A stretch of 64,000 nt of DNA from Alphaproteobacteria bacterium. Lineage in GTDB: Bacteria > Pseudomonadota > Alphaproteobacteria > SP197. The position numbers were made by a program, and so were the translations under genes. The first letter of the stretch is position 1, and every line of letters starts with the position of its first letter. The notes under the pieces were generated by a model. The model searched no databases. It was not told where the DNA came from and saw nothing but the letters and a program-made list of their open reading frames with translations. The stretch lies in assembly GCA_964291415.2 (NCBI GenBank), contig OZ219920.1:1504001-1568000 (forward strand), given 5' to 3'. Of this stretch, positions 4,098 to 58,072 are shown in pieces.

Positions 4098-4148
4098 GTC
4101 TCGTTCCCCCGTTGAGCGCGGCCGCATGTGAAATCAAGGGGCGAGGCA

Positions 4149-4196: not shown

Positions 4197-4246
4197 GTGC
4201 GCCGGCATTTTCCGGCGGCCCTTGACTGCCAGGCTGGCGAGACGAC

Positions 4247-9562: not shown

Positions 9563-9939
9563 CAGGCAAGCTCCGAGAGGTAGTCCCCGTAGGCGTCCTC
9601 GTCCATCAGTTCGTCGAGTTCGCCGGCGTCCGCGAGCCGGATCCGCACGAACCAGCCCGAACCATAGGGATCGGCATTGACCTCCGCCGGGTCGTCGCCG
9701 AGCGCGTCGTTGACCTCGACGACCTCTCCGGAGACGGGAGCGTAGACTTCGCTGGCCGCCTTGACCGACTCGACAACGCACAGTTCGTCATTGCGCGCCA
9801 CCTTCCCCCCTGTTTCCGGCAACTCCACGAAGACGACATCTCCGAGCTGATCCTGGGCATAGTCGGAGATGCCGACGGTGCCGATGTCATCGTCGACATC
9901 GATCCACTCGTGTTCCTTGCTGTAGAGCCTGTTCCCCAT
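9562..9939 (-). CDS. gcvH: Glycine cleavage system H protein
   Basis: [27 protein letters not shown] lipoyl-Lys motif. Confidence 0.97.
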
Positions 9940-9958
9940 GGTGTCGTCTCCCTTCACG

Positions 9959-11095: not shown

Positions 11096-11142
11096 TGAAC
11101 CTGTTCCGGCCGTTGCAAAGGGGGCGCACACACGTCCGCCTT

Positions 11143-11368: not shown

Positions 11369-11485
11369 CCTCCAACCGGCAGCCAGAAGGCACACGATCT
11401 TGATTGACCTGCCGGCACTGCACCTGTCGGGGGAGCAAATCGGCGTCACATGGTGGCGCCAAAGCCTGACTGAGTCGGGAGTCCC

Positions 11486-30452: not shown

Positions 30453-30587
30453 GGCGCAGCCTGCGGAAACGGGCATGCCGCTCCGCGCTACGGTACGTCC
30501 GGTGCGGTGTCACGGAGACCTTTCTCGCATCACCCGGGGCCCGCGCATGGATCTGGCCCGGCGGCGCCACCACTGAGAGCACGTTCG

Positions 30588-32110: not shown

Positions 32111-32683
32111 TCAACCGGGGCTGTCGGGACGGCGGTGACGCATCAGGAAGGGAGTCTGGGCAACGGCGAAGAGCACCGTCAGGCCGAGAATTCCGAACAC
32201 CTTGAAGAACACCCAGGTCTCTTCATCCTGGGTGCGCCAGACGAGTTCGTTGAGACCGGCCATGACCGTGAAGAAGAGCGCGAACCTGATGGACAGGGTG
32301 CGCCAGGCCTCATCGACCAGATCAAAGGCGCCGCCCATGACGAACTTCAGCGGCGAGCGTCCAATGGCGACGCCGCCGGCGAGAAGCGCGGCAAACAGCA
32401 GTTGAACGATCGTCGGTTTCATCTTGATGAAGGTCGCATCCTGCAACGCGAGCGTGAGGCCGCCAAAGATTGAGACCAGAACGGCCGTCACCACCGCCAT
32501 CTTCGGCACGTGACGGGCCACCAAGTATCCCAGGGTGACGGCGCCCAGCGTCGCCAGCACCAGCACCCCTGTCGCCACCATCAGATCAGCCAGCAGGTAG
32601 GCGGCAAGAAACAGGGCCAGCGGCCCGTAGTCGGTTGCCGGCGTCAGCCACCCCGGCTTGTGTCCTTGATGCATTGCCCGCAC
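32111..32683 (-). CDS. yciB: Intracellular septation protein A / YciB
   Basis: DYGPL..F, FGGLTL, FIKMKPT, NELVWR, WV.FKVFG. Confidence 0.93.
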   Translation of the reverse strand: MRAMHQGHKPGWLTPATDYGPLALFLAAYLLADLMVATGVLVLATLGAVTLGYLVARHVPKMAVVTAVLVSIFGGLTLALQDATFIKMKPTIVQLLFAALLAGGVAIGRSPLKFVMGGAFDLVDEAWRTLSIRFALFFTVMAGLNELVWRTQDEETWVFFKVFGILGLTVLFAVAQTPFLMRHRRPDSPG

Positions 32684-32739
32684 TCTTCGACCGGTTTCCC
32701 GCGCACCATGGCAGGGAGACGCATGCGGGGAAAGAGATC

Positions 32740-33369
32740 ATGCTCCACGATGGTATCGACGCAACCTTCGAGCACCTGCGCCAGGAAATCCTGCGTTTCA
32801 TCGCGCATCAGGAGGACGGGGCCTCGGCACGGGCCCGCTCTGTTCTCTCCCGTGAACTCTCGTCTGCCAGGCTGCCGGACCGGATCCAGGAGGCGCGACG
32901 GCTGCCGGGCTGCCGCCATCTCGATGCAGCACTCTCCATGGCCAGGCAGGGGGCCATGGCGGATCTCGCCGACGCCTTCGCCGCCCTGGAACCCTCGCTG
33001 CGCTGGATCCGCAGCGAGCACTATCGCGAGAGCCTTGGCGACGACTACATGAACAACTACTGCTACACCAACATTCTGGGTTTCGAGGCCCTCATTCCCC
33101 ACGACCGTGTCGTCGCCGCCTTCTTCGTGATCGGTCCCGGACGACACTATCCGCGTCACCATCACGAAGCCGAGGAGATCTACTATCCCTTCGGCGGCGA
33201 TACGCTGTGGGGTCAGGATGACGCCCCACCCCGACCGCGCCCGCCGGGGAAACCGGTTCACAACACCCCCTGGCTCCCCCACGAGATGATCACCCGCACC
33301 ACGCCGCTTTTCACGTTCTGTTTCTGGGTGTCGCCGGGACCGATTCAACCCGCCCAGCTGACCGGCTGA
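32740..33369 (+). CDS. Cupin protein of the DddQ/DddL DMSP-lyase family
   Basis: Cupin motif 1 YPRHHHEAEEIYY, motif 2 HNTPWLPHEM, PLF...W; start uncertain (32635 or 32740). Confidence 0.7.
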   Translation: MLHDGIDATFEHLRQEILRFIAHQEDGASARARSVLSRELSSARLPDRIQEARRLPGCRHLDAALSMARQGAMADLADAFAALEPSLRWIRSEHYRESLGDDYMNNYCYTNILGFEALIPHDRVVAAFFVIGPGRHYPRHHHEAEEIYYPFGGDTLWGQDDAPPRPRPPGKPVHNTPWLPHEMITRTTPLFTFCFWVSPGPIQPAQLTG

Positions 33370-38801: not shown

Positions 38802-38925
38802 TTGATTGACCAGTCAGATAGTTTGGGCGATCCTCAATGGGTCTGCAATCAGGTGACCCGGACTCTCATGATACCCTGAGCCACCGGTCTCCGGGCCAAT
38901 GGCAATCTGGAGGACCATATCCATC
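38802..38925 (+). promoter_or_regulatory. Duplicated promoter/operator/structured leader, copy A (upstream of amine oxidase)
   Basis: 95/124 ungapped identity to reverse complement of 47538-47661; TTGATTGACCAGTCAGA box; TTGACC-17-GATCCT; CTCCGG/CTGGAG anti-SD stem. Confidence 0.85.
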
Positions 38926-40263
38926 ATGATTCCTGCGCAATCATTCTCTCGCCGGTCGTTTCTGGCTGGCCTCGGGGCGACGGTGGCGTTGCCTTCAAGC
39001 GCCCTTGGCGCTTCCGGCAACCCGGATGTCGTGGTGGTGGGAGCCGGAGCGGCCGGCCTTGCCGCGGCTCGAACCCTGCTGGATGAGGGTTTGTCCGTCC
39101 TCGTCCTCGAGGCTGCGGGACGAACGGGCGGACGGGCATGGACGGAAAGCGACACCTTCGGCGTCCCCTTCGATCACGGGTGTTCCTGGGTCATGGGTCC
39201 GGCGGATCTTCCCTATATCGCCATGGCGCGCGAGTGGGGGTTCACGCTGCACAACCACAACAGCGCCGGAGAATCGATCTTCGTCGGCGATCGCAAGGCG
39301 ACCGGCACGGAAAGGGGCGAGTACGACCGCGCCTGGGACGCCATCAACAGCGCTCTCAACAAGGCGGGGCGCGACGGCCTCGATGTCGCCGCGTCGACGG
39401 TTGTTCCGTCCGACATGCCGTTTTCCGGCGTGTCCCAGACGTGGATGGGAGCCATGGACTTCGCCGTCGACTTCGACGAGCTGTCGACCCTGGACAACTG
39501 GATGTACGGCGATGTCGGCGCCTACTACATGATCCGTGAAGGGTTCGGCACGCTTGTCGCCCGCGATGGTTCCGGTCTTCCCGTCGTGCTGGAAACCCCG
39601 GTCACCGCCATCGACTGGAGTGGCGATGGCGTGGCGGTGGAGACGCCTTCCGGCACCGTGCGGGCGCGGGCCTGCATCGTCACCGTATCCACAGGCGTGC
39701 TGGGCTCCGGAGACATCTCCTTTGCCCCCGCCCTTCCGTTGTGGAAGCAGGAAGCCATCGACCGATTACCAATGGGACTCCTGATGAAGATCGCCCTCAA
39801 GTTCGACGGTGAGCGGTTCGGTCTCGGCGACAACAACTGGCTGACCTATCACGTGGAAAACCTGCTGCCGGCACGCGCATGCTATTTCCTCACCTTCCCC
39901 TTCAGTTTCGATCTCATGATCGGCTTCACGGGAGGGCGTTTCGGCCGCGAACTGGCGGCAGCGGGGTCCGATGCCGCGATCGATTTTGCCCTGAGCGAGC
40001 TTGCCGCAATCTTCGGCAGCGACGTGCACAAGCACTTCGTGAAGGGGCTGGCGACTGACTGGGACAGCAATCCCTGGACGCGCGGCGCCTATGCCGCGGC
40101 CCTCCCCGGCCACCATGGCGCCCGAGCCGAACTCGCCCGGCCGGTCGCCGACAGGATCTACTTTGCCGGCGAGGCTACGGCCGCGCCGTGGTATCAGCTC
40201 GCCGGCGGCGCCTGGCTCAACGGCCGATTCGTCGCCCGGGAGGTTGCCGCCGTTCTGTCATAG
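38926..40263 (+). CDS. Tat-exported flavin monoamine oxidase family protein
   Basis: SRRSFL twin-arginine signal, VVGAGAAG, GGRA, W...PW.RGAY, FAGEA. Confidence 0.88.
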   Translation: MIPAQSFSRRSFLAGLGATVALPSSALGASGNPDVVVVGAGAAGLAAARTLLDEGLSVLVLEAAGRTGGRAWTESDTFGVPFDHGCSWVMGPADLPYIAMAREWGFTLHNHNSAGESIFVGDRKATGTERGEYDRAWDAINSALNKAGRDGLDVAASTVVPSDMPFSGVSQTWMGAMDFAVDFDELSTLDNWMYGDVGAYYMIREGFGTLVARDGSGLPVVLETPVTAIDWSGDGVAVETPSGTVRARACIVTVSTGVLGSGDISFAPALPLWKQEAIDRLPMGLLMKIALKFDGERFGLGDNNWLTYHVENLLPARACYFLTFPFSFDLMIGFTGGRFGRELAAAGSDAAIDFALSELAAIFGSDVHKHFVKGLATDWDSNPWTRGAYAAALPGHHGARAELARPVADRIYFAGEATAAPWYQLAGGAWLNGRFVAREVAAVLS

Positions 40264-42819: not shown

Positions 42820-43578
42820 TCAGTTGGCTCGCCCGTCGGCGTGTTCGAGATCGGCCAGTTGCCGGTCGATGACGTCGAGCATGTGCTGACGGTCCATGAC
42901 ACCGTAGTGGCCCGGGCAGACGCGCTTGACCGGGAGTTCGCGCATGCGCTTCAGGCTGGCGCAGTAGGCAGCCGGTTCGGGGGGCGGCCAGGCGGGCCCG
43001 TGATCGCCGTCGTAGAGCATGTCACTGGTGAAGAGCGTGCCGCTTGCCTCGTCCCAGATCGCAAGACCACCTGGCGAACGCCCCGGCACATGCAGGACAT
43101 CGAGCACGCGGTCGCCCAGATCGAACCGCGATCCATCCTCGACAAGGCGCGTCGGCTCGGCCGGTGTCATGGTGTAACCGCCCACGTCGTAGTGTTCGTG
43201 CGGAAGCGCCCACAGCGTCGTCCGGTTGAGATAGGTTCCCGCACCCACGCTTTCCCGGGTGGGTGCGCGCAGTTCCGGCGCGTCCAGGGGATGACAGGCC
43301 CGGTCGGAGAAACTCGCCCAGCCGCCGGCATGGTCGTAATAGCAGTTGAGGGCAACGGCGGTGACGGGCTTGCCGGCCACGGCCTCGACGAGAGGAGCAG
43401 GCGGCACGATGCCGGTGCCCGTATCGACTGCAAGATCCCGGTCCTGGCCGCGGACAAGCCAGATGTCGCCAACGGCATAGGAATCGATGTGGTCCTCCCG
43501 GAAGCGGATGATGCCGTCATCGAGAGCCTCGATGGCAAACCAGACTTCGGCGATCGGCAGGGTGTCGTCAGCTTCCAT
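42820..43578 (-). CDS. MBL-fold hydrolase with atypical metal site
   Basis: VDTG, NCYYDH (for HxHxDH), PGRSPG (for PGHSPG), LFTSD, PGH. Confidence 0.82.
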   Translation of the reverse strand: MEADDTLPIAEVWFAIEALDDGIIRFREDHIDSYAVGDIWLVRGQDRDLAVDTGTGIVPPAPLVEAVAGKPVTAVALNCYYDHAGGWASFSDRACHPLDAPELRAPTRESVGAGTYLNRTTLWALPHEHYDVGGYTMTPAEPTRLVEDGSRFDLGDRVLDVLHVPGRSPGGLAIWDEASGTLFTSDMLYDGDHGPAWPPPEPAAYCASLKRMRELPVKRVCPGHYGVMDRQHMLDVIDRQLADLEHADGRAN

Positions 43579-45649
43579 GGTCCATCTCCACGTTGACCCG
43601 GTCGTGCCTGAGCGGATTGTCAGGATCGACGTTGGTGTCGAGTTCGCGGGCGTAACGGTGCCCGGCGTACACCGCCGCGGCGATGATGGCCGGCGCATCG
43701 CAGTCGCCGATCCGCCTGAGCGACTTCGGCGCGCCCTTCTCTCCCGCCTCCATGCTCCGGCGAACCGCCTTGTAGAGGGCATCGTCGGGAATGCGTGACG
43801 TGACGAGAACGATGGCGTCCGCGTCGATATCCCGTTCCTCGCCGCTGGCACTGCAGGCCACCCGGGCCCGACGGCCATCGAAGGAGACCAGTTCATGGGC
43901 CACGACGATGCCCACACCGACCTCCATCAACCGTCTGCGGGCCCGCCAGCGGTCCAGGGTCAGTCCGCCCCAGGCCGAGACGACATCTTCCGGTGTCACA
44001 AGAGTGGTCTCGAGACCCTGGCCACGCAGTGTCTCGGCCATGACAGTACCCATGTAGTAGTGGTCATCGTCGTAGACGAGCACACGACCTTCAGGCAGCC
44101 GTCCGGCCATGATGTCATCGGGCGTGAAGAGGCTCTCACGGGGGCCGAGACAGTCGATTCCCGCGCGATTGCTGGTACCGAATCCGTCGGCTCTCCAGTG
44201 CGCCCCTGTCGCCACCGCGACATGGTCCGCCGCCACCTCGAAGACATCTTCCGGACCCAGCCTGCTTTCAGGATAGATTTCCACGTTGGCGAGCCCGTTC
44301 AACTGGGTCACCCGATAGTCGCGCACACGGCGCCACTCAGCCAGACCGGGAAGCATGGATTCCCTCGACACTCGTCCGCCGAGTTCGCGGGCCGCCTCCG
44401 CAAGCATGACGTCGTATCCGCGTCTCCCTAGGGAAAGGGCTGCTTCCAGGCCGGCCGGACCGGCCCCGACGACGAGAACACGTGACGTGGAATGCCGGCT
44501 GGCGATGGTCTCCGGATGCCAGCCGCGGCGCCACTCCTCGCTCATGGTGGGATTCTGGGTGCAGCGGATGGGAGCGCCGCGGGCATCACCCATGTAGCAG
44601 ATGTTGCAGCCGATGCACTCGCGGATGTCCTCGATGCGTCCCTCCTCGATCTTCTTCGGCAGGAAGGGATCGGCGATGGAAGGCCGCGCCGCGCCGATAA
44701 AATCAACCAGCCCCTTCCTCACCCAGGCCGCCATGGTATCCGGAGACGTGAAGCGTCCCACGGACACGATCGGCTTCGTGGTCAGGGGCCGGATGGTCGA
44801 AACGTAGGCCTCCAGGGACCCTTCGCCGACGAACCGCGACAGTCCCATTTCGAGCGAGTAGTCGCTGACATTGATGTCCCAGAGGTCCGGCAGTTCCCCC
44901 AGCAGTCCCAGCATGTCTTCGGTCTCGCCCGGAACCGGCGTGCCGTCGCCGCCCCCGCCACCGCTGGTCTCGGCGGAAAACCTCACCGCGACAGCCATGG
45001 TCGCGCCGACGGCGTCCTTCGTGTCCTCGATGAGTTCGCGTATCAGGCGCACCCGGTTGGCGAGCGATCCGCCATACTCGTCCGAGCGCGTGTTGAGCAC
45101 CGGCGACAGGAATTGCGACAGCAGGTAATCGTGGGTGGCATAGACGTAGACAATGTCGAACCCTGCCTCCCTGGCGCGCAGCGCGCCATTGCGATGCCAT
45201 CGCCTGACTTCGCGGATGTCTTCGCGGTCCATGGCCCGCGTCTGGAAGGGCTCTCCCGTGGCAAGCGGCATGCTGACCACCCCGAGCGGCACCTGGCGGG
45301 TCAGGTGATTGGCCATCCTTGCGCCGCCCAGAACCAGCTCCACGCCGGCAAGCGAACCGTGCCCGTGCACCTGCTCGGTCATCAGGGCGTGCGCCCGGAT
45401 ATCGCGATCATCCCAGAGCGAGGCCATGGGATAGGGGGTATCGTCAATCGACGGATGAGGGGAACAGTACTCCGTGTTGACCACGGCCCAGCCGCCTTCG
45501 GCTTTCATGGCGCGCAGTCCGGCAAGGATGTGCGGGCTCTGCCAGCCGCTCCCGGTGCAATGAGGCACCTGATAGAACCTGTTTCGGGCGGTTACCGGCC
45601 CGATCGCCACCGGTTCGAACAGGATGTCGTGACGCGGGTCCCGGGCCAT
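43568..45649 (-). CDS. Trimethylamine/histamine dehydrogenase family flavo-iron-sulfur protein
   Basis: NRFYQVPHC (Cys for 6-S-cysteinyl-FMN), VYATH, CIGCNIC..CTQNP 4Fe-4S motif, EEWRRGWHPE, GAGPAG. Confidence 0.9.
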   Translation of the reverse strand: MARDPRHDILFEPVAIGPVTARNRFYQVPHCTGSGWQSPHILAGLRAMKAEGGWAVVNTEYCSPHPSIDDTPYPMASLWDDRDIRAHALMTEQVHGHGSLAGVELVLGGARMANHLTRQVPLGVVSMPLATGEPFQTRAMDREDIREVRRWHRNGALRAREAGFDIVYVYATHDYLLSQFLSPVLNTRSDEYGGSLANRVRLIRELIEDTKDAVGATMAVAVRFSAETSGGGGGDGTPVPGETEDMLGLLGELPDLWDINVSDYSLEMGLSRFVGEGSLEAYVSTIRPLTTKPIVSVGRFTSPDTMAAWVRKGLVDFIGAARPSIADPFLPKKIEEGRIEDIRECIGCNICYMGDARGAPIRCTQNPTMSEEWRRGWHPETIASRHSTSRVLVVGAGPAGLEAALSLGRRGYDVMLAEAARELGGRVSRESMLPGLAEWRRVRDYRVTQLNGLANVEIYPESRLGPEDVFEVAADHVAVATGAHWRADGFGTSNRAGIDCLGPRESLFTPDDIMAGRLPEGRVLVYDDDHYYMGTVMAETLRGQGLETTLVTPEDVVSAWGGLTLDRWRARRRLMEVGVGIVVAHELVSFDGRRARVACSASGEERDIDADAIVLVTSRIPDDALYKAVRRSMEAGEKGAPKSLRRIGDCDAPAIIAAAVYAGHRYARELDTNVDPDNPLRHDRVNVEMDHGS

Positions 45650-45653
45650 CGCG

Positions 45654-46340
45654 TCAGGCCTCGCAGCCAGGCGCCGCCGGTCGTTCGAAATGATGTGGAA
45701 AGACCGTGGCAAGATAGGTCAGGCAGTCCGCTCTCGCGGTCTGCCGGCGGATGTCCCGCGGATACATGAGAAGGTTGAGCCACAGGCCGTCGACCAGGGC
45801 CTCGATGCTGCGGGTAATCCCTTCCGCGTCGGCGCCCTCGTAGCGGCCACTTGCCACCAGTTCCCGGCACAGCCGGCAGATCTCGACATACCTCTCGTCA
45901 TCGAAGCGGTGATGGATCTCGAGATAGGCGGGCCGGTACTTCGCCTGGCCCCAGAAGGCGAACCACACCGCAAGTTTCTTGTTGGAGCAGACCCGGCGAT
46001 CGAAATCCGCCTCCAGGATGGCCTGCAGCTGGTTCGCCGGATCCGGACCGGCATTCAGCATGGCGCCGCGCCACAGCTCATAGTGTTCACGCGCCAGGTA
46101 CCCCAGGGTCTCGACGTAGAGATCTTCCTTGGTGCGGAAGTGAAAGTTGACCACGCCATGCGACAGCCTGGCGCCCTTCGTGACCGTTTCCAGGGTGGTG
46201 CCCGAAAATCCGCGCCTGGCGATGGACTCGATGGTGGCGTCGATCAGCTGCTGGCGCCGTGCCTGCCGGGCGGCAAGACGGCGGTCCGCCGTGCCGGTCG
46301 TTTGCGACCCGGTCGAAGCCGGGGATGCGACAGCTGACAT
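45654..46340 (-). CDS. TetR family regulator, BetI-like
   Basis: RRQQLIDAT...G...TT...A.LSHG.VNFHF..KE HTH; W.AFW; ALVDGLWL. Confidence 0.88.
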   Translation of the reverse strand: MSAVASPASTGSQTTGTADRRLAARQARRQQLIDATIESIARRGFSGTTLETVTKGARLSHGVVNFHFRTKEDLYVETLGYLAREHYELWRGAMLNAGPDPANQLQAILEADFDRRVCSNKKLAVWFAFWGQAKYRPAYLEIHHRFDDERYVEICRLCRELVASGRYEGADAEGITRSIEALVDGLWLNLLMYPRDIRRQTARADCLTYLATVFPHHFERPAAPGCEA

Positions 46341-46427: not shown

Positions 46428-47540
46428 TCAGAAACCGGCGATCATCTCACCCCAGTCACGGTTGATCTTGGTCTCGATCTCTTCGGTCTGCGCTCTCAGG
46501 AAGACACCCTTGTCCAGAATGTCGGCGGGAGTCCTGGAGAGTCCGCGAGCCGCCAGATCGTCATCGCTGACGAGATCAAACGCCGCGGCACTCGCGTGAC
46601 CATAGCCGTTCTCCACGATCACATACTCCCCGACCTCGGGAGCGAGCATCGCGTTGATGAGATCGTGGGCCTTGTCGTAGTGGGGCGCATCGCTGGTCAG
46701 CACCGTGCCGCAGACCCAGGTCAGCGCTCCCTCCTTGACGTCGGCAAACTTCACCGGAATGCCCTGTCTGGTGAGTTCCAGGGGTGAGCTGTTCCAGGTC
46801 ATGGCCGCCACGAGTTCGCCGGAGGCAAGGGCCTGTTCGACCGTCGTCATGTCACTCTGGCGGAACCTCAGGAGGTCGCGCTGCTGCCTCAGGATATCGA
46901 GAACCTCCGCCAGGGATTCATCGGTCAGGTTGTCGGTATCGACGCCGGCGTAGATGGCGGCGCACCACCAGGCATCCTCGGCCGCATCGATGATCGAAAG
47001 CCTGCCGGCATAGCGCTCGTCCCACAGCAGGCCCCAGGACTCCTCCTCACCCTGCCAGTCGACGATGTCCGTGCGGTAGGTGATCGAGGTCTGTCCCCAC
47101 TCGAAGGGGGCGAACCACTGCTCTCCCTCGTGCTGGGCGTCCTTGATGTTGTAGAGCGCCGGAACCACGTCCTTCCAGTTGGGAATCCGTGACGTGTCGA
47201 TGGGCTGGAGAACGCCCGCGTGCCGCCAGCGTGGCACGTTGTTGCTGCATGGATGAATGAGATCCACGACGAAGCCCGCCCTCACCTTGGTGAAGGCCTC
47301 CTCGGCGTCGCCATAGACCGGACAGTCCGGTTCGACGCCATGTTGTTCGACATAGCCTGGCCAGTAAATCGGATCGTCGTAGCCGGCCCACGTGAAATAG
47401 ATCGCCTGTTCGTCCTGGGCCTGGGCCGCCGTCAACGGCATCACCGTCGACACCAGTCCGACCGCAGCCATCGCCTGGCCAAGTTCGCGACGGCTCAGCT
47501 CCCGGTTTTCAAGTCGCTTGATGGTATCTCTGATATCCAT
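46428..47540 (-). CDS. PotD/PotF-like polyamine ABC substrate-binding protein with Tat-like signal
   Basis: SRRELG signal, FTWAGY, PFEWG, SW..LWD, KEGALTW. Confidence 0.85.
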   Translation of the reverse strand: MDIRDTIKRLENRELSRRELGQAMAAVGLVSTVMPLTAAQAQDEQAIYFTWAGYDDPIYWPGYVEQHGVEPDCPVYGDAEEAFTKVRAGFVVDLIHPCSNNVPRWRHAGVLQPIDTSRIPNWKDVVPALYNIKDAQHEGEQWFAPFEWGQTSITYRTDIVDWQGEEESWGLLWDERYAGRLSIIDAAEDAWWCAAIYAGVDTDNLTDESLAEVLDILRQQRDLLRFRQSDMTTVEQALASGELVAAMTWNSSPLELTRQGIPVKFADVKEGALTWVCGTVLTSDAPHYDKAHDLINAMLAPEVGEYVIVENGYGHASAAAFDLVSDDDLAARGLSRTPADILDKGVFLRAQTEEIETKINRDWGEMIAGF

Positions 47541-47661
47541 GGATGTGATCCTCCAGGTTGTCACCCGCCCGGAGCGCTGTGGCCACGGGTCTCATGTGAG
47601 TCCGCACCACCTGGTTGCGGACCCGGGGAGCATCACCCAGATTTTCTGACTGGTCAATCAA
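47538..47661 (-). promoter_or_regulatory. Duplicated promoter/operator/structured leader, copy B (upstream of SBP operon)
   Basis: Homologue of 38802-38925; TTGACC-17-GATGCT; 5' stem GGGTCCGCA/TGCGGACTC; anti-SD stem CTCCGGG/CCTGGAG. Confidence 0.85.
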
Positions 47662-50749: not shown

Positions 50750-51238
50750 CTAGAACCGTCCAAGAACCAGAAACCGCAACCCCGGTTCCCCCGTTGCCGG
50801 AAGCCTGTCCCAGGTCGCTTCCATCTTCAACAGCGCACCGCCCCCGCACAACTCCTCGCAGGCGTCCGCCATCCCGCCTAGAGGCGCCACCGCAAGGGAC
50901 ATCACCCCTCCCGCCCTCAGCAGCCTGACGAGACCGTCAAACACCTCGACAGACGCATCGTCACCGCTGAAAACCCGTGATGCGATGACAGCGTCGTAGC
51001 TGCGATCCGGCAGATCGGCCGGCGATCCGGCGCTGAAGAGCCGGCGGTAGACGCCCCTCCCTCGCGCGCGTGCCAGCATGCCGGACGCGACATCCATGCC
51101 ATCAATGACCCGGTATCCCAGACCGGACAGAACCGCACCGGCCGCTCCGTCTCCGCACCCCCAATCGAGAATTTCCGCCCGGCGATCGTCCAGGTGGCGG
51201 GCAAGGTTATCGCAGCATCCGGCAGCGCCATCACGCAT
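50750..51238 (-). CDS. Class I SAM-dependent methyltransferase, possibly N-terminally truncated
   Basis: ILDWGCGDG motif I, DGMD...ML..AR.RGVY, YDAV; very short region before motif I. Confidence 0.6.
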   Translation of the reverse strand: MRDGAAGCCDNLARHLDDRRAEILDWGCGDGAAGAVLSGLGYRVIDGMDVASGMLARARGRGVYRRLFSAGSPADLPDRSYDAVIASRVFSGDDASVEVFDGLVRLLRAGGVMSLAVAPLGGMADACEELCGGGALLKMEATWDRLPATGEPGLRFLVLGRF

Positions 51239-51280
51239 CGCTTCCCTCCGTCAGTCCGGGTGACGGGCCAAAGACCAGGG

Positions 51281-51868
51281 TCATGGTCTCGCCCGCGTCG
51301 CCAGCGAGGCGATCAGCGCTTCGGCGGCCGCAAGCGCCATGGCGCGGTAGCGAGGCGGTGCTCCGAGGGTCCGCATCGACTGGTGGTCGTTGTAGATGGC
51401 AGCAAGGCCGTGGGCAACGGTCGTGATGGCATCCGGATCCGCATCGGGAAACGAGGCGCGCAAGACATCCTGAAGCGCATCGGCGAAACCCTGCAGCCAG
51501 CTCTCGAGGCGGGCGGCAATTGCCGGGTTGCGGCGGGCGGCGGAGTAAACCGATTCAAGGACTGGCAACGCGTCGTCCGGTGCATCCCAGAACAGGTAGT
51601 GCGGCAGACCGCCGACGCCGGGGTTGGCGATGAACCAGGTTCGCATGTCGTCGTTCTGCCGCTGAAGGTGAACTTCCAGACGATCGAGAAACGCCGCAAC
51701 CAAATTGTCGCGATTGCCGATGTAGTGCCGGATGATCGAGCGGCGGACACCCGCTTCACCGGCCACCTCCTCCAGGGAAACGGCATCCAGCCCCGAACGC
51801 GCCACGCACCGCGAGAACGCATCCAGGATCTGTTCCGATCGTTCGGCACTGAGGTCAGGACGCGCCAT
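51281..51868 (-). CDS. TetR family regulator
   Basis: MARP...R..QILDAF..C....G....SLEEVA..AGV...IIRHY HTH. Confidence 0.9.
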   Translation of the reverse strand: MARPDLSAERSEQILDAFSRCVARSGLDAVSLEEVAGEAGVRRSIIRHYIGNRDNLVAAFLDRLEVHLQRQNDDMRTWFIANPGVGGLPHYLFWDAPDDALPVLESVYSAARRNPAIAARLESWLQGFADALQDVLRASFPDADPDAITTVAHGLAAIYNDHQSMRTLGAPPRYRAMALAAAEALIASLATRARP

Positions 51869-51908
51869 GGATGTCATCCCGGGTTGTGAGTGTCGTGTGG
51901 AGAGTGTT

Positions 51909-51947
51909 GATTGTCACTCTTGACAATCTATACTGGCGAACCATACT
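51909..51947 (+). promoter_or_regulatory. Putative TetR operator overlapping the monooxygenase promoter
   Basis: Perfect inverted repeat GATTGTCA-CTCT-TGACAATC (51909-51928) containing TTGACA (51920-51925), 16 bp before CATACT. Confidence 0.7.
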
Positions 51948-51981
51948 TGTCATCCACGAACACCGAGAGAGGGCTGGTTTC

Positions 51982-53922
51982 ATGCGCTGCCACTACACCG
52001 CCATGCTGTCGCACTTCCTGATCCTTGCCCTCCTGGCATCTCCCTTCGCCATGGCAGCGGCGGATACCGCCAACAGCAGTCACGACTCCTGGAGCGGCCA
52101 GGTGGCCCATGTCTACGGCACCCGCGTGGTCGATCTCGACGGCAATGTTCACCGCATCGGGACCGACGCCGGTGTCCAGCCGGTGGTTCTCCTGTTCATG
52201 AACGCCTTCTGTCCGGTCTCCAGCCGCTACGCTCCCGAATTCAACGAACTTTCCGCGTTTGCCGATGCGCATGGCGCCTCCCTGTACGGTGTCATGTCGG
52301 GGCCCTACCTGACGGTGGGCGAAGCCAGGAACTTCGTGGCTGACCACGGATTCGACTTTCCTGTCATCTTCGATCCCTCCGGTGATCTTGCCCTGCGCCT
52401 CAACCCCCTCGTCACCCCTGAGGCCTTTGTCGTCGATACCAGGGATGATGTCATCTACCGGGGCCGCATCGATGACCGCTTCGAAGCGATCGGCGTCCTG
52501 CGCAACCAGATCACCAGCCACGACCTCAAGGATGCCATCGCGACGGTGGGGGCGGATGGTGACCCGCTGCCCCGTTCCACAACTCCTGTCGGCTGCGTGT
52601 TCGAGGGCTGGGAGGCGGACCGCCTGCCGGAATCCGTGACCTACAACCGGGATATCGCCCCCCTGCTCGCGGCCAACTGCACGGAGTGCCACAGGGACGG
52701 CAGCATCGCCCCCTTCCCTCTCGATACCTATGTCGATGCCAAGCGCCGGGCCCGCATGCTGGCCTTCGTGACCCGCGAGCAGATCATGCCGCCCTGGCGG
52801 GCTGTCGAGGGATTCGGCGCGTTCCGCGACGAACGGCACCTTTCCGGCCGGCAGGTCGCCCTCCTCGCAGCGTGGGCCGAAGCCGGCGCGCCGCTCGGCG
52901 AGGACGTGGAGGCGCTGCCGGAAACGGTGTGGCCGGACCCCACGTGGCGCGTCGGCGAGCCGGATTTGGTGCTCGCCATGGAAGAACCCTTCGCCATTCC
53001 CGCGACCGGTCCCGACATCTACCGGTACTTCGTCATCCCCTTCGAACTCTTCCAGGAACGCGCCATCAGCGCCATCGAGTTCCAGCCCGGCGACGAGCGC
53101 GTCGTTCATCACGCCAACATCTTTGTCGATTACTCGGGCCGGGCGCGCCGCGCCGACGCCAGGGACGACGAACCCGGTTTCTCCGTTTTCGGAACCGGCA
53201 GCTTCTTCGACTACAGCGGCGAAGCGCAAACCTGGGGCATCGGAGGCTGGACGCCCGGCGTCGATCCCTATGCCCTGCCGGACAATCATGCCATGTGGCT
53301 GCCGGCGGGCGCCGGCGACGTCGTGTTCGAGATCCACTATCATCTCAACGGCAAGGCCACCGAGGACCGCAGCCGGATCGGTCTCACGTTCGCCGACGGA
53401 CCCGTCGCCCACTGGGTTGACGGGCTCGTGATCGGCACGCAGCAACTCGCGATTCCTCCGGAGTCGGACACCTACTGGCGCCACGTCCGGATGGAGGTTC
53501 CGGCGCCGTTGACCCTTGTCGACATCATGCCGCACATGCACTACCTGGGCGCCGAGGCGAAGGCGATCGCGACACTCCCGGACGGCACGCAGATACCACT
53601 GGTCCATGTCGAGGAATGGGATCTCAGGTGGCAGAACATCTACTTCTTCCGCGAACCCGTCCGCCTGCCCGCCGGCAGCACGATCGACGGCTGGATACGG
53701 TTCGACAACACGTCGGCCAATCCCTACAACCCGACGCTGCCTCCGAAGACCGTGACGTGGGGCTGGGGATCGGACGAGGAGATGATGGAATTCTGGATCA
53801 GCTTCGTGCTCGACGACTGGCGTGAGCGCGACCGCGTGATCAATGCATCATGGGAAACCTGGTCCGAAAATCCCCGATGGGACGGGCCGGTGCCGGATCT
53901 GGCCGATCTCAACCTGCGCTGA
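51982..53922 (+). CDS. Secreted redoxin + cytochrome c + copper type II (PHM/DBH-like) monooxygenase fusion
   Basis: Signal peptide; FCPVS..TPEAFV..YRGRIDD..GC redoxin; CTECH heme with MPPW; VVHHAN, EIHYH, MPHMH, EEM copper ligands. Confidence 0.8.
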   Translation: MRCHYTAMLSHFLILALLASPFAMAAADTANSSHDSWSGQVAHVYGTRVVDLDGNVHRIGTDAGVQPVVLLFMNAFCPVSSRYAPEFNELSAFADAHGASLYGVMSGPYLTVGEARNFVADHGFDFPVIFDPSGDLALRLNPLVTPEAFVVDTRDDVIYRGRIDDRFEAIGVLRNQITSHDLKDAIATVGADGDPLPRSTTPVGCVFEGWEADRLPESVTYNRDIAPLLAANCTECHRDGSIAPFPLDTYVDAKRRARMLAFVTREQIMPPWRAVEGFGAFRDERHLSGRQVALLAAWAEAGAPLGEDVEALPETVWPDPTWRVGEPDLVLAMEEPFAIPATGPDIYRYFVIPFELFQERAISAIEFQPGDERVVHHANIFVDYSGRARRADARDDEPGFSVFGTGSFFDYSGEAQTWGIGGWTPGVDPYALPDNHAMWLPAGAGDVVFEIHYHLNGKATEDRSRIGLTFADGPVAHWVDGLVIGTQQLAIPPESDTYWRHVRMEVPAPLTLVDIMPHMHYLGAEAKAIATLPDGTQIPLVHVEEWDLRWQNIYFFREPVRLPAGSTIDGWIRFDNTSANPYNPTLPPKTVTWGWGSDEEMMEFWISFVLDDWRERDRVINASWETWSENPRWDGPVPDLADLNLR

Positions 53923-54015: not shown

Positions 54016-55305
54016 TCAGGTCCAGGTCGGCGGCGTCTCCCGCAGATCGAGACGGTCGCGCATGACGCCGGAGACGAGATACCAGGTGAGACCGAACTGG
54101 CGCAGGCCGTGATGGGGGACGAGGTCCAGCGGCTCCACGGGCATGTCGGTCTCCTCGCCAAGAACAAGACGTGTGAGCTGCGTGCCGAACATCGAACTCA
54201 TGGCCACACCGCGCCCGTTGAAACCCAGACCGGCGTGAGCGTTCCGGGCGAGCCGGAAGAGACGCGGCGTGTGGTCGGGCGTCAACGCCACCCGGCCGCC
54301 CCATCGGTGGGTCCAGGCGACGCCTTCGAGCGCCGGGAAGATCGCCGTGGCCATCCTCTGCAGGTGTGTGACCGACCCTGGCTCCGCACCGTTCGTGAAG
54401 TTGCCGCGGCCGCCCATGACGAATCGATCGTCCCGATCGAGCCGGAAGTAGTGAAGCGTGCGGCGGGTCTCCGCGACCGCATGACGACCAGGCAGGATGA
54501 CTGCGCGGCGTGTCTCGTCCAGGGGCTCGGTCGCGGCGATGAAACTGGTGACGGGTACCACGGAGCGCTCGAGTCCGGGCCATAACCGGTCGGTATAGCC
54601 ATTCGTGCAGAGCAGCAGATGCTCGGCCTCGACTTCGCCACCGGCGGCCACCAGTCGCCAGCCGGCGCCGTGTGCATGAACGCTGTGGGCGCGGGTCCGG
54701 CCATGAACGATGGCGCCCTTGGCGACGGCCGCACGCGCCAGACCTCGAGCGTAGGACAGGGGCTGCACGTGACCGCCGCGAGGATCGTGCATGCCCATAT
54801 GGTAGTAGTCCGTTCCGATGAGGTCCGTCAGGGCGGCGCGTTCCAGGCGTTCGACCTTCACGCCCAGTTCGCCCCATTCCCGGGACCACGCCTCGAGGAA
54901 GGCCTTGCCGTGGCGGCCAAGCCCGGCGCTGACCAGACCGGGGCGCTCGTGATCGCAGGTGATGCCGTGGCGGTCAATCAGGTCGAACACGAGATCCGTC
55001 GCCCGGTCGAGCATGGCCAGCACGGCCGGCGTCGCATTGCCGCCATACTTTGCCGCAATCTCCGAGGGCAGCATGCGCCAGCCCGGGTTGACCTGACCGC
55101 CGTTTCGCCCCGAGGCGCCCCAGCCCGGTTCACCGGCTTCCAGCACGATCACCCGTTTGCCGGCCTCGGCAAGGTGGAGTGCCGCCGACAGCCCGGTAAA
55201 GCCGCCACCGACGATGGCGACATCCGCACCGGTCTCTCCGGCAAGGGGTGGCGTGTCGATGGCCGGCGCCGCGCTTGCGGCCCACAGACTCTCCGGCAGC
55301 TTCAT
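54016..55305 (-). CDS. FAD-dependent oxidoreductase (DadA/PuuB-like)
   Basis: SLWAA, GGGFTGLSAA, GASGRNGG, TNGY, WGG, GFNGRG. Confidence 0.88.
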   Translation of the reverse strand: MKLPESLWAASAAPAIDTPPLAGETGADVAIVGGGFTGLSAALHLAEAGKRVIVLEAGEPGWGASGRNGGQVNPGWRMLPSEIAAKYGGNATPAVLAMLDRATDLVFDLIDRHGITCDHERPGLVSAGLGRHGKAFLEAWSREWGELGVKVERLERAALTDLIGTDYYHMGMHDPRGGHVQPLSYARGLARAAVAKGAIVHGRTRAHSVHAHGAGWRLVAAGGEVEAEHLLLCTNGYTDRLWPGLERSVVPVTSFIAATEPLDETRRAVILPGRHAVAETRRTLHYFRLDRDDRFVMGGRGNFTNGAEPGSVTHLQRMATAIFPALEGVAWTHRWGGRVALTPDHTPRLFRLARNAHAGLGFNGRGVAMSSMFGTQLTRLVLGEETDMPVEPLDLVPHHGLRQFGLTWYLVSGVMRDRLDLRETPPTWT

Positions 55306-55382
55306 CACGGATTCCCCCGATCCAAAGGGCAGTCTAGTCTGCACACCGGATCCGGGACCAGACCGACGAACCTGGAGGAACC

Positions 55383-56876
55383 ATGACCACCCCTCCCAAC
55401 ATCCTTCTTGTCATGATGGATCAGCTCGCCCCCCAGGTGCTGAAGCCCTACGGCGGCACGGTGTGCCGGACGCCCAACCTGGAGCGGCTGGCCGGTGAGG
55501 GCGTCGTGTTCGAAAACGCCTACTGCAACTACCCGATCTGTGCGCCGGCCCGTTTCAGCCTCATGTCGGGCCGCATGCCAAGCCGCATCGGAGCATTTGA
55601 CAACGCAACCGAATTTCCATCCGAGATTCCGACCTTCGCACACTATCTTCGCGCAATGGGGTATCACACCTGCCTCGCCGGCAAGATGCACTTCGTCGGC
55701 GCGGACCAGCTTCACGGTTTCGAGGACCGGGTGACGACCGACGTCTATCCCTCCGACTTCTCGTGGACCAGCAACTGGTCGCTGGACCAGACCTTCTGGG
55801 AACCGGGGCTCAATTCGGTCGAGGCCGTGCTCGATGCGGGACCCAGGCGACGCAGCGTCAACACGAACTACGATGAGGAGGCAACCGTCGAGGCCTGCCG
55901 CTGGCTCTACGATCACGCCGACAGGGCCGACGGCCGGCCCTTCTTCCTGACGGCCAGTTTCATCAGTCCGCACGACCCCTACCTGGCGCCGCCCACCCAC
56001 TGGGACCTCTACGCGGACGACGAAATCGACGATCCCAGGGTCGGCGATATCCCACTCGAAGAGCGTGACCCCCACAGCCGCAGACTGTACTACACGATCG
56101 GCCGCCACATGCAGACGATCGGCCCTGCCGATGTCCGCCGGGCGCGACGCGCATACTATGCCGTGATGACCTGGCTCGATGAGCGCATCGGGCGGATTCT
56201 GGAGACCCTCAAGGCCATCGACGCACGCGACAACACGATCGTCGTCGTGACGGCCGATCACGGGGACATGCTTGGCGAACGCGGCCTGTGGTTGAAGATG
56301 AACTTCTTCGAGTGGTCCGTGCGCGTACCGCTGATCGTGCATGCGCCGCAATTCTATGGTGCGCGCCGGGTCACAGAGAACGTGTCCCTGCTGGATCTCT
56401 TCCCGACCTTCCTGGAGTGGGCCGGCGACGGCGAACTGCCGGAACTGTTCGCGCCGATCGACGGCGCCAGCATCGCCGGGCTGGCCGCGGGGCACGGCGA
56501 CGGCTGGCCCGATATCGTCGGCAGCGAGTTCTGCGGCCAGGGCACTTCCTCTCCGGTGCTGATGATTCGCCGCGAACGCTGGAAGTACATCCAATGCGAG
56601 GATGATCCGCCCCTGCTCTTCGACATCGCGCAGGATCCCGATGAACTCGTCAACCTGGCCGGGACACCGGAGGTCAGCGGCATCGAGACCGATCTTGCCA
56701 GCGAAGTCCGTCGCTGGTGGGATCCTGCGACCCTGAAGGATCGCGTGATCGAGAGTCAGAAGCGCAGGAAGTTCCTTCACGCCGCCCTGTCGGTTGGCCG
56801 TCGCACACCCTGGGACTGGCAACCGGTGCGTGATGCCTCGCGTGAGTACGTGCGTGGCGACTATCCCAGGAACTAA
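55383..56876 (+). CDS. betC: Choline-sulfatase-like sulfatase, paralog 2
   Basis: PNILLVMMDQ, CAPAR, GKMHFVGADQLHG, PHDPY, ADHG, WDWQP. Confidence 0.85.
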   Translation: MTTPPNILLVMMDQLAPQVLKPYGGTVCRTPNLERLAGEGVVFENAYCNYPICAPARFSLMSGRMPSRIGAFDNATEFPSEIPTFAHYLRAMGYHTCLAGKMHFVGADQLHGFEDRVTTDVYPSDFSWTSNWSLDQTFWEPGLNSVEAVLDAGPRRRSVNTNYDEEATVEACRWLYDHADRADGRPFFLTASFISPHDPYLAPPTHWDLYADDEIDDPRVGDIPLEERDPHSRRLYYTIGRHMQTIGPADVRRARRAYYAVMTWLDERIGRILETLKAIDARDNTIVVVTADHGDMLGERGLWLKMNFFEWSVRVPLIVHAPQFYGARRVTENVSLLDLFPTFLEWAGDGELPELFAPIDGASIAGLAAGHGDGWPDIVGSEFCGQGTSSPVLMIRRERWKYIQCEDDPPLLFDIAQDPDELVNLAGTPEVSGIETDLASEVRRWWDPATLKDRVIESQKRRKFLHAALSVGRRTPWDWQPVRDASREYVRGDYPRN

Positions 56877-57109
56877 AGCTGCCGGGCGGCGGAAGACACA
56901 CAGCATGATCGCCACCTCGGCCGCACCCATGTCCACGCTGACGGCCGCTGCATCAACATTGCGGCGTGGCGCGTGACCATGTGCCGGTTTCCGCCTGCTC
57001 CCCTGGTGGATCAGGAACGGCCGTCCTTCATGCCGGGTGCCAACTGGCCTGATCGCCTGCGTGCAGGGTAGGCTGAATCGGCGTATCGGATACGAAACAG
57101 GGGCAAGTC

Positions 57110-58072
57110 TTGAAGGCAGACACCGGAACGAACGAATGGCGCCGCAGTCCGCGCCGGGTGCACGTGCACTTCGACGGCATCCGTGTCGCGGACTCCGAGC
57201 GCACCATGTTGCTCCGTCAGCACGGCTTCCTGCCGGTTTACTACTTCCCCGAAGACGACGTGAAGACCGACCTGCTCGTGGCCACCGACTACACGACCAC
57301 GTCGCCCTACAAGGGCACGGCGAACTATTGGCATCTCGACACCGGATCACGGATCGCGCGCTTCGCCGTATGGCGATACCTGCGGCCGAAGGAGGGATCG
57401 CCCGACACCAGAGGTCACTACGGTTTCGACTGGCACAGCATGGATGCCTGGTGGGAGGAGGACGAACGCCTCCACGTGCACGCGCGCGATCCGTTCCTGA
57501 GGGTGGACGCGGTGCAGAGCGCCCGATCCGTCAGGGTCGAGATCGCCGGACGCACCGTTGCGGAGACGCACCACCCGGTGCTGCTGTTCGAGACCGGTCT
57601 GGTGACGCGCTACTACGTCCCCGCAGAGGACGTGCAGTCCGGACTGTTCGAGCCGAGCGCCACCTACACGCTCTGTCCCTACAAGGGCCGTGCGCGCTAT
57701 CACCATGTCCGGATCGACGGCGCACGGCATGGCGATGCGGCCTGGCAGTATGTCCGCCCCCTGCCCGCGGTGGCGGCCATTGCCGGGCACTTCGCATTCT
57801 GGAGTGAACGCGCCGACACAACGATTGTCGTCGACGGGAAACCCCTCGCCGACAGAGGCGTGCGCTCCGCCGGCGAGGGCGGCGAGTGGCTGCAGCCGTG
57901 GCGTGAGTTCTGGGGTGAGCCCCCGCCGGCTGCAATGAAGGGTGCCGGCACCGGAAAACAGTTGGAAGCCGCGCGTCCCAATGGACGGGCCGAGGGTCCG
58001 CCCGACGGCGTCATGGATCTCGACATCGAACGCGCCGGAGGAGGCCCGGAGGACTGGCTGGGACAGGGATGA
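57110..58072 (+). CDS. Tandem DUF427 domain protein
   Basis: Two repeats: PVYYFP..DV...TTSPYKG.A.Y and ETGL..RYYVP..DV...CPYKG.A.Y. Confidence 0.82.
   Translation: MKADTGTNEWRRSPRRVHVHFDGIRVADSERTMLLRQHGFLPVYYFPEDDVKTDLLVATDYTTTSPYKGTANYWHLDTGSRIARFAVWRYLRPKEGSPDTRGHYGFDWHSMDAWWEEDERLHVHARDPFLRVDAVQSARSVRVEIAGRTVAETHHPVLLFETGLVTRYYVPAEDVQSGLFEPSATYTLCPYKGRARYHHVRIDGARHGDAAWQYVRPLPAVAAIAGHFAFWSERADTTIVVDGKPLADRGVRSAGEGGEWLQPWREFWGEPPPAAMKGAGTGKQLEAARPNGRAEGPPDGVMDLDIERAGGGPEDWLGQG

Follow-up and report, generated by a model that had tools for sequence, protein, structure and literature searches.

The window analysed here is a 64,000 nt stretch of the genome of an Alphaproteobacteria bacterium (assembly GCA_964291415.2, contig OZ219920.1, positions 1,504,001 to 1,568,000), and the subject of this work is a gene within it whose 646-residue product fuses a thioredoxin-fold redoxin domain, a mono-heme c-type cytochrome domain and a dicopper domain resembling those of peptidylglycine alpha-hydroxylating monooxygenase (PHM) and dopamine beta-monooxygenase (DBH). 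The gene is accompanied by a divergent regulator of the TetR family (Table 1). On balance we think it probable that the product is a periplasmic, TetR-repressed monooxygenase of the PHM/DBH (non-coupled dicopper) type, which would receive its electrons through its own heme from periplasmic carriers and not from ascorbate. The three-domain architecture and the export signal had been proposed in a first-pass annotation made from the sequence alone; both proved to be real upon inspection of Pfam matches, an AlphaFold2 model, the translation and residue conservation, and every motif then listed (C77-P-V-S, G204-C205, C233-T-E-C236-H237, M269-P-P-W, H376-H377, H452, H518-M-H520, and M601) lies where it had been placed. 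These motifs are not due to chance, since they are near-invariant in the 120 closest sequence clusters. Conservation was counted per residue in this close set and in a broad set of 150 divergent representatives, these being the ones listed out of 14,163 matches to the cytochrome c and copper domains (the core).

Table 1. Features of the target gene and of its surroundings in the window
Feature	Position	Strand	Basis
Redoxin–cytochrome c–PHM/DBH-like gene, 646-aa product	51982..53922 (incl. stop codon)	+	Open reading frame, translation, length and start of relatives
Sec-type signal peptide, residues 1-25, hydrophobic core, A-M-A before likely cleavage site	51982..52056	+	Read from translation
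Thioredoxin-fold redoxin domain, residues ~40-215	52099..52626	+	Pfam, PDB alignments, Foldseek, conservation
Redoxin C77 in [D/N]xxCP	52210-52212 (codon)	+	Translation
Redoxin distal G204-C205	52594-52596 (C205 codon)	+	Translation
Mono-heme c-type cytochrome domain, residues ~218-305	52633..52896	+	Motifs, weak Pfam, conservation
Heme motif C233-T-E-C236-H237	52678-52692	+	Translation
Candidate axial M269 in M269-P-P-W272	52786-52788	+	Translation; putative ligand role
PHM/DBH-like double beta-sandwich dicopper domain, residues ~325-625	52954..53856	+	Foldseek, profile, Pfam of relatives
CuH ligands H376, H377	53107-53112	+	Alignment to PHM
CuH ligand H452	53335-53337	+	Alignment to PHM
CuM ligands H518, H520	53533-53541	+	Alignment to PHM
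CuM ligand M601	53782-53784	+	Alignment to PHM
Divergent TetR-family regulator	51281..51877	-	Pfam TetR_N, E 1.9e-5, 24.8 bits vs cut-off 24
Candidate TetR operator, perfect palindrome GATTGTCA-ctct-TGACAATC	51909..51928 (extended arms 51903-51934)	unstranded	Palindrome search
Sigma-70-like promoter, TTGACA, 16 nt, CATACT (10/12)	51920..51947	+	Consensus scan only
DAO-family oxidase (pipecolate-oxidase-like), convergent, downstream of target	54016-55344	-	Pfam
Choline-sulfatase-like sulfatases	30507-32102 and 55383-56876	+	Pfam
Methylated-amine/sulfonium/osmolyte catabolism set	2568-4124 (-), 6741-11128 (-), 11446-12534 (-), 32635-33366 (+), 38899-40260 (+), plus both sulfatases		Pfam

A PHM/DBH-like dicopper domain

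The AlphaFold2 model, a kind of check which the first-pass annotation had itself proposed in connection with the complete-looking CuH and CuM ligand sets of its PHM/DBH-like domain, was built on a 30-sequence alignment (mean pLDDT 84.6, pTM 0.81) and is almost entirely beta strand between residues 329 and 610. A Foldseek search of the PDB with this model gave PHM (3mll, E 2.3e-14) and human DBH (4zel, E 3.2e-14) as the best matches, and some 29 PHM or DBH chains (~29) rank ahead of the first redoxin match; the alignment to PHM covers ~300 columns with a TM-score, normalised to the target, of 0.65 and a sequence identity of 13-17%. The double beta-sandwich of PHM is thus present in the model. 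A profile of the C-terminal domain assembled from 30 loci (A2) and searched against the PDB also finds PHM (E 1.3e-6) and DBH (E 1.3e-5), and it places vvHHa on TVHHM, levHY on LQVHY, PHmHylG on RVHTHHLG, and dEMaely on SDEMCNLY of PHM. By this alignment the family matches all six copper ligands of PHM, which we take to be H107, H108 and H172 for CuH and H242, H244 and M314 for CuM. In the close set H376, H377, H452, H518 and H520 are each present in 120 of 120 sequences and M601 in 119, with one gap; the corresponding counts among the 150 sequences of the broad set are 145 for H376, 148 for H377, 147 for H452, 149 for H518, 148 for H520, and 143 for M601. Model, structural search, profile and conservation all support the domain assignment of the first-pass annotation, and by fold, profile and ligands the target is a remote member of the PHM/DBH superfamily which lies outside the curated families.

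The substrate pocket differs from that of PHM. The clamp by which PHM holds the carboxylate of its peptide substrate presumably consists of R240, N316 and Y318. The position of R240 is occupied by M516 in the target and, in the close set, by Thr (n = 69), Ser (n = 20), Leu (n = 14), Met (n = 13), Phe (n = 3) or Ala (n = 1) and never by Arg (0/120), while N316 corresponds to E603 (119/120) and Y318 to W605 (118/120); a carboxylate clamp for peptidyl-glycine is accordingly missing from the target. Three pocket positions, E603, R549 and W605, do not vary within the close set but do so in the broad set, where the position of E603 holds, for example, Glu in 33, Leu in 21, Asp in 17 and Ile in 16 sequences, and we read this variation of pocket positions as substrate diversification. 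Variation of the ligands themselves is rare. The core-only homologue P0167 (433 aa) has Arg-Arg at the two positions of the CuH His pair and keeps H452, the HxH and the Met, and in the broad set Arg is found at H376 in three sequences and at H377 in two, so that to judge from these alignments a minority of the family may lack the electron-transfer copper.

Pairing of the cytochrome c and copper domains

The cytochrome c region is helical in the model and holds a single CxxCH, with the MPPW motif which carries the candidate axial Met following 32 residues later. Both CxxCH and M269 are found in 120 of 120 sequences of the close set, and C233 (145), C236 (146), H237 (146) and M269 (147) are similarly retained in the broad set. 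To gauge the extent of the family, residues 215-646 were compared by phmmer with 1.84 billion cluster representatives (clustering at 50% identity), and this gave 14,163 matches at E<=1e-3, 8,329 at E<=1e-10, and 2,605 at E<=1e-30. Among the 150 matches listed nearly all begin within query residues 1-10, the exceptions being short fragments; since a single match therefore spans both domains, the cytochrome c and copper domains are found together and would represent the constant core of the family. Its members come from Planctomycetota, Pseudomonadota, Acidobacteriota, Gemmatimonadota, and Verrucomicrobiota, and are deposited under names such as "redoxin domain-containing", "thiol-disulfide oxidoreductase family" or "cytochrome c domain-containing" protein. 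The fusion architecture is in other words already visible in annotation with the function left blank, and these automatic names bear out the remark in the first-pass annotation that similar architectures are found in bacterial annotations.

A Pfam scan of 40 representatives showed that the core occurs alone (~430-450 aa), behind a redoxin as in the target, in front of TPR repeats, which are the commonest extension among the proteins scanned, or, in P0155 and P0156, in front of a redoxin at its C-terminus. The C-terminal redoxins, which have DCPIS, share the pattern [D]CP[IV]S...Y-x-G-R-I-[DN]...IGC with the N-terminal one, and the joining of the same special redoxin to the core in two orders argues for a real functional link. 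When the redoxin (residues 36-215) and the core (216-646) were folded as separate chains their docking scored 0.59, the best of three controls scoring 0.01; at least 93% of the contacts agreed between runs and the partner pLDDT was at least 86. This result was graded as weak support: 116 of 157 solved complexes reach the mark applied, as do two of 215 mismatched pairs, and a score of 0.60 or less on reaching it was seen for 18 of the 157 solved complexes and for both of the passing mismatches. There is thus a tie between redoxin and core, both physical and evolutionary. An N-terminal redoxin Cys is nevertheless missing from about 50 of the 150 sequences in the broad set. Single proteins showed further arrangements: P0152 is a fusion of redoxin, core and an FGE-sulfatase domain (1/40), P0264 is a redoxin-core protein fused to G8/CEMIP beta-helix domains, P0123 has a tandem duplicate of the core with EF-hands, and P0144 a double redoxin-core repeat.

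The divergent TetR regulator and its candidate operator

The genomic context was examined in the redoxin subfamily, for which a scan of genomes found 282 relatives, 80 loci being kept; these span Alphaproteobacteria, Gammaproteobacteria, Planctomycetota (including Candidatus Uabimicrobium), Verrucomicrobiales, Gemmatimonadota/Longimicrobiales, Acidobacteriota, and others. Hidden Markov models of two recurrent small neighbours, both of the TetR family, were run on all six-frame open reading frames of these loci at E<1e-50. A TetR gene was found directly beside the target in 53 of the 80 loci, a figure which is not a count of independent events as many of the loci are close relatives; the occurrence of both TetR types across several phylum-level groups is the stronger point. 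The divergent type found in the window recurs in 20 further loci, which belong to three phylum-level groups and include the Planctomycetota loci L027, L031 and L074 and the Verrucomicrobiales loci L040 and L044. The second type, found in 33 loci, lies on the same strand immediately upstream of the target, or in four Gemmatimonadota/Longimicrobiales loci immediately downstream. The TetR gene is the only conserved neighbour of the target gene.

The intergenic region between the two divergent genes contains a perfect palindrome (Table 1), and when up to one mismatch is allowed 19 of the 21 intergenic regions associated with the TetR type of the window contain the motif TTGTCA-N4-TGACAA, often in two copies; the regions carrying it include those from Planctomycetota and Verrucomicrobiales. 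Elsewhere in the same loci only three sites occur in 337,109 nt, and none of the 33 regions of the second TetR type has the motif (0/33). A promoter scan found three sites where 0.5 were expected from shuffled sequences, and the -35 hexamer of the candidate promoter of the target lies inside the operator palindrome. Taken together, TetR, the predicted operator and the target gene appear to behave as one unit that is common to several phyla. A second copy of the operator was observed ~35 nt downstream of the first in L001, L007, L012, L027, L031 and L044; in the window the second site, at 51945-51963, is degenerate (ACTTGTCATCCACGAACAC).

As to the regulator itself, its relatives begin at the fourth codon of the frame given in Table 1, with ATG at 51868 (alignment A3). 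Its profile matches generic TetR structures only (Mycobacterium TetR 4g12, TtgR, RcdA and RutR), and in NCBIfam there were sub-threshold BetI matches restricted to the helix-turn-helix. The sole invariant Cys of this TetR lies in the N-terminal DNA-binding region and is not evidence for redox sensing.

Proposed mode of action

In the mode of action that we propose, a small-molecule inducer would free the divergent TetR from the TTGTCA-N4-TGACAA operator overlapping the -35 box. The protein would then be exported by the Sec pathway, and the cytochrome c maturation system would attach heme c at C233 and C236. The heme, presumably coordinated by His237 and Met269, would take up single electrons from soluble c-type cytochromes or from the bc1 complex and pass them on to CuH (H376, H377, H452), and CuM (H518, H520, M601) would bind O2 and hydroxylate a C-H bond of a substrate other than a peptidyl-glycine. 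The redoxin, with C77 and C205, would be an accessory module docked on the core. The heme as built-in point of electron entry is plausible, judging from the constant pairing of the cytochrome c and dicopper domains, and ascorbate would not be expected to serve as donor in the bacterial periplasm.

Several observations count against this proposal. The target protein has no Pfam match to PF01082 or PF03712 even at E<=1, and its relatives match weakly (PF03712, Cu2_monoox_C, in 21 of 30 with a best E of 2.1e-4; PF01082, Cu2_monooxygen, in 15 of 30 with a best E of 2.1e-5). Cytochrome_CBB3 likewise reaches only E 0.044 on the target, below the Pfam cut-off; all 30 aligned relatives match this model at E<=1, weakly, with a best E of 4.6e-5. 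The docking of the redoxin on the core reached no higher grade than weak support, and the RR of P0167 at CuH means that not every member of the family can work as proposed. Neither TetR type is present in 27 of the 80 loci, at least six of which have less than ~1.1 kb of upstream sequence or a partial gene, and the neighbourhoods examined yield no clue to the substrate.

Beyond the target itself, we put forward tentatively, as a possibility which we hold with less confidence than the assignment of the target, that the family is a large bacterial class of copper monooxygenases coupled to the respiratory chain, in which the fused cytochrome c would replace ascorbate and the pockets would have diversified for periplasmic substrates over thousands of subfamilies. 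In the subfamily of the target the enzyme, TetR and the operator would then form an inducible two-gene module moving between phyla, which would probably serve to modify a particular small molecule from the environment, or to detoxify it, ahead of its entry into the cell.

The redoxin domain and alternative explanations

The redoxin domain (match at residues 52-164) is recognised by Pfam as AhpC-TSA (42.0 bits, curated cut-off 26, E 1.1e-10) and as Redoxin (39.9 bits, cut-off 26.6, E 4.5e-10), and it carries a YRGRIDD signature in addition to the CPVS at C77-S80. For residues ~50-215 the nearest solved sequences in the PDB are 2cvb (E 4.3e-8), 2ywi (E 8.6e-7) and 3u5r (E 8.1e-4), and the redoxin part of the model matches the same three structures in Foldseek (2cvb at E 5.9e-11). 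These proteins from Thermus (2cvb), Geobacillus (2ywi) and Sinorhizobium (3u5r, SMc02350) have Y-[RH]-G-[RQ]-x-[DN]-D and a C-terminal (I/V)GC in common with the target redoxin; they are stand-alone proteins bearing CNHC, whereas the redoxin of the target family is fused and keeps the second Cys only, as [D/N]xxC. Their entries name them thioredoxin-like proteins without assigned function, and to our knowledge no function has been assigned to them. We take this group of redoxins to be the PRX-like1 group of CDD, in which the second Cys of the motif presumably stands at the peroxidatic position.

Where 2cvb and 2ywi show CNHC the aligned target shows NAFC, so that of the two Cys of a CxxC only the second is retained. 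Position 74 of the close set is Asp in 101 sequences, Asn in 11, Gly and Ser in two each, Ala in one and a gap in three, no sequence having Cys there; C77 is retained in 117 of 120, the three gaps belonging to N-truncated sequences, and C205 in 119 of 120. The target redoxin thus lacks the CxxC dithiol motif of the thioredoxin-, TlpA- and ResA-like reductases and of the solved PRX-like1 proteins, and in NCBIfam the protein has only weak ResA/StoA/DsbE-like matches far under the cut-off. A catalytic Thr or Ser in (T/S)xxC defines the peroxiredoxins, and this too is missing from the target redoxin, which has Asp or Asn at that position (Ser in 2/120 of the close set). The distal C205 stands where a resolving Cys would be expected, and PMC3091736, which deals with peroxiredoxin-like domains, counts the C-terminal Cys of the 2ywi-type fold among those that act as resolving cysteine. 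One motif Cys together with one distal Cys would, by this comparison of motifs, make the layout peroxiredoxin-like and not that of a thioredoxin-like reductase.

These features bear on the source of electrons, which the first-pass annotation had sought in redoxin and heme together. The version it implies is that the redoxin dithiol is a two-electron source recharged by a DsbD/CcdA-type pathway and that the heme splits the electron pair for the coppers, which would make the enzyme a thiol-driven monooxygenase. The near-invariance of C77 and C205, the resolving role described for the C-terminal Cys of the related fold, the fusion of the redoxin to one end of the core in some lineages and to the other end in others, and the docking score (0.59 against 0.01, weak support) all speak in favour of such a role. 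We nevertheless consider it unlikely: of CxxC only [D/N]xxC is left, none of the 120 sequences having Cys at position 74, many members have no redoxin at all, as in the core-only and core-TPR forms and in the third or so of the broad set (~50/150) without the N-terminal redoxin Cys, and these members must obtain their electrons in another way. We also know of no close precedent for one-electron transfer from a disulfide to a heme without a flavin or metal mediator. Of the original suggestion the heme as point of entry therefore stands as plausible, heme and copper domains being always paired, and the redoxin as donor does not. Since the redoxin does not have the motif of a dithiol reductase and is absent from many relatives, a protective or auxiliary role is favoured for it. 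It is more likely that the domain protects the enzyme, for example by clearing peroxide that arises when turnover is uncoupled or by maintaining a thiol or the metal site in the reduced state, than that it is the main source of electrons.

Another explanation gives the redoxin Cys the task of trapping a Cys-containing client protein or peptide as a mixed disulfide, the copper site then oxidising this client, perhaps by hydroxylating it at a position adjacent to sulfur, in the manner of formylglycine formation, or by oxidising a thiol. The single-Cys layout would suit mixed-disulfide chemistry, the fusion partners of the core elsewhere are protein-binding or thiol-directed (TPR being commonest among the 40 scanned, and FGE-sulfatase in P0152), and the window contains two sulfatase genes. 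It seems to us rather unlikely, however, since a ligand-sensing TetR and the RND and ABC efflux genes of some loci point to a small molecule, and since the adjacency of sulfatases is limited to the close relatives of the window plus two other loci and the FGE fusion to one of 40 proteins.

The protein might also be an oxidant-defence or oxidase device, in which, as in a periplasmic oxidase or peroxidase, cytochrome c supplies the copper and redoxin sites with electrons for the reduction of O2 or peroxide, or which handles copper itself. The redoxin is peroxiredoxin-like with its kept Cys at the second Cys position of CxxC, PRX-like1 proteins keep a Cys at the peroxidatic position, and some repressors of the TetR family respond to oxidants or copper. 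This explanation is quite improbable in view of the conserved complete His-His-Met set of CuM and the PHM-like pocket, in which residues E603, R549 and W605, fixed among close relatives and variable in the broad set, fit substrate specialisation better than one shared oxidant; nor did the Pfam matches of the neighbours scanned include recognisable oxidative-stress or copper-resistance genes. Finally, a copper-free beta-sandwich for binding or of the PNGase F kind, which shares the double beta-sandwich of PHM, with a coincidental His/Met pattern would account for the failure of the target to match the Pfam copper-monooxygenase models, and is highly improbable given that the top ~29 Foldseek matches are PHM/DBH chains with no PNGase F among the matches listed, and that all six ligands are invariant and align to those of PHM.

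Comparison with known systems

PHM (1phm, 3mll, 1sdw) and the target have in common two beta-sandwich subdomains, the HH...H set of CuH and the HxH...M set of CuM, and the HHLG/HYLG and DEM motifs of PHM also align with the target family. The target differs in being bacterial and, by prediction, periplasmic, in its fused heme c and redoxin domains, in an identity of 13-17%, and in the replacement of the clamp residues R240, N316 and Y318 by Thr/Ser/Leu/Met, Glu and Trp, respectively. It is because the protein falls below the curated Pfam thresholds and is without the PHM substrate clamp that we do not file it as PHM or DBH. The group of DBH, tyramine beta-monooxygenase and MOXD (4zel) has the same catalytic core and ligand set. 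DBH has an extra N-terminal DOMON domain, and related DOMON domains can bind heme; the accessory domains of the target are instead a thioredoxin fold and a probable cytochrome c of class I, and there is no dimerisation domain. The nearest parallel in concept is cellobiose dehydrogenase, whose cytochrome domain reduces lytic polysaccharide monooxygenases: here also a heme domain feeds single electrons to a copper oxygenase in place of a small-molecule reductant. The two systems are not homologous; the former consists of separate proteins with heme b and a mononuclear histidine brace, whereas the target is a fusion with a heme c motif and a non-coupled dicopper set.

A search of the full-text literature, with papers judged at abstract level, found none on a bacterial member or on a redoxin–heme–copper fusion, and the matches for "DBH-like" at this level were all animal genes; this agrees with the first-pass annotation, which knew of no biochemical characterisation. 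PHM and DBH are textbook animal enzymes, responsible for amidated hormones and noradrenaline, and both the two-electron crossing of ~11 A between their uncoupled coppers and the way in which the enzymes are recharged are debated. A soluble bacterial homologue with a built-in donor would be a tractable system for both questions: if our proposal is true, electron transfer from heme to CuH to CuM could be watched directly, and the family would be a source of biocatalysts for ascorbate-free C-H hydroxylation. Given the very large size of the family and its uninformative names, one assigned function would annotate many genes in several phyla, and the conserved pair of TetR and operator offers an experimental handle on the inducer and, through the inducer, on the substrate.

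Limits of the gene and overlapping reading frames

The open frame around the target gene extends from 51871 to 53922. A start at 51871 was discarded in favour of the ATG at 51982, from which the product opens with the hydrophobic signal peptide MRCHYTAMLSHFLILALLASPFAMA, followed after the likely cleavage site by AAD; in addition the nearest relative is likewise 646 aa long (identity 91%, coverage 100%), a purine-rich stretch (GAGAGAGGG) lies a few bases 5' of this ATG, and the longer frame would include the promoter-like site. These four points identify ATG 51982 as the true start and confirm the limits of the gene given in the first-pass annotation. A hydrophobic N-terminus is present in 30 of 30 aligned relatives, and pLDDT in the model is below 50 over residues 19-35.

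An antisense frame of 559 aa (51928-53607, minus strand) overlaps the target gene and is taken as an artefact of the ~65% G+C content; a longest-frame caller preferred an antisense frame over the target gene in 16 loci. Other long frames antisense to real genes, at 55305-57350 (minus strand, 681 aa), 51194-51889 (plus strand, 231 aa) and 45690-46337 (plus strand, 215 aa), had no Pfam match and look like artefacts of the same base composition.

Genomic neighbourhood

The target gene stands alone between the divergent TetR gene upstream and the convergent DAO-family oxidase downstream. Its near neighbours in the window are genes for a methyltransferase, an agmatinase-family enzyme, a CocE/NonD hydrolase, the pipecolate-oxidase-like DAO, one of the choline-sulfatase-like proteins, and a gamma-glutamyltranspeptidase (GGT). 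The catabolic set listed in Table 1 comprises an MTTB-family methyltransferase, the P and T proteins of glycine cleavage, an agmatine-deiminase-like protein, the two sulfatases, a DMSP-lyase-like protein, and a flavin amine oxidase; with the agmatinase-family gene these are the amine and osmolyte genes of the window. Housekeeping genes (GlmU-like, glycine cleavage, FtsH, TilS, Tol-Pal and RuvAB) are also present.

It was this richness of the window in amine, sulfonium and osmolyte genes that had led the first-pass annotation to an amine or amide as the plausible substrate. The amine genes are spread over the whole 64 kb and are thus a property of the region and not of the target gene; they are not conserved beside the gene elsewhere, the conserved neighbour being TetR, and the clamp Arg is found in none of the 120 close sequences, so that this suggestion was not upheld. 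The neighbours seen in the window are syntenic only in close relatives. Across the 80 loci an agmatinase-family gene occurs in 10 and a sulfatase in 10, nearly all of them close relatives, a class-III aminotransferase occurs in five and is limited to a single clade or to close synteny, and ABC_membrane_3 (10 loci) and HlyD/AcrB (three to five loci) recur within one clade only. In 20 loci without either TetR type the neighbours are unrelated to one another. With synteny confined to close relatives and unrelated genes in the TetR-less loci, the inference of a substrate from neighbouring genes was abandoned.

In one alphaproteobacterial/Rhodospirillales clade ABC_membrane_3 follows the TetR-target pair (L015, L016, L042, L019, L020, L023, L048, and L067), and three of these loci add an amidohydrolase, an HlyD-type adaptor and an AcrB-type RND pump (L015, L016, and L042; about 9.8-16.5 kb in locus coordinates). 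Efflux genes behind the pair hint at co-regulation with efflux. In the TetR-less locus L021 an AraC/GyrI-like (Cass2-type) small-molecule-binding regulator (3488-4462, plus strand) lies upstream of the target in the same position as TetR.

Two further observations were made in the window away from the target gene. The segment 43568-47564 on the minus strand is a catabolic unit of its own with its own regulator: a BetI-type TetR gene (45654-46340) is flanked there by the genes of a large OYE/FAD Fe-S flavoenzyme (43568-45712) and of a solute-binding protein (46428-47564). The flavoenzyme has sub-threshold matches to the mycofactocin-system FadH/OYE and related models. An open reading frame with two DUF427 (NTP_transf_9) repeats (57110-58072, plus strand) is located between the sulfatase and the gamma-glutamyltranspeptidase gene.

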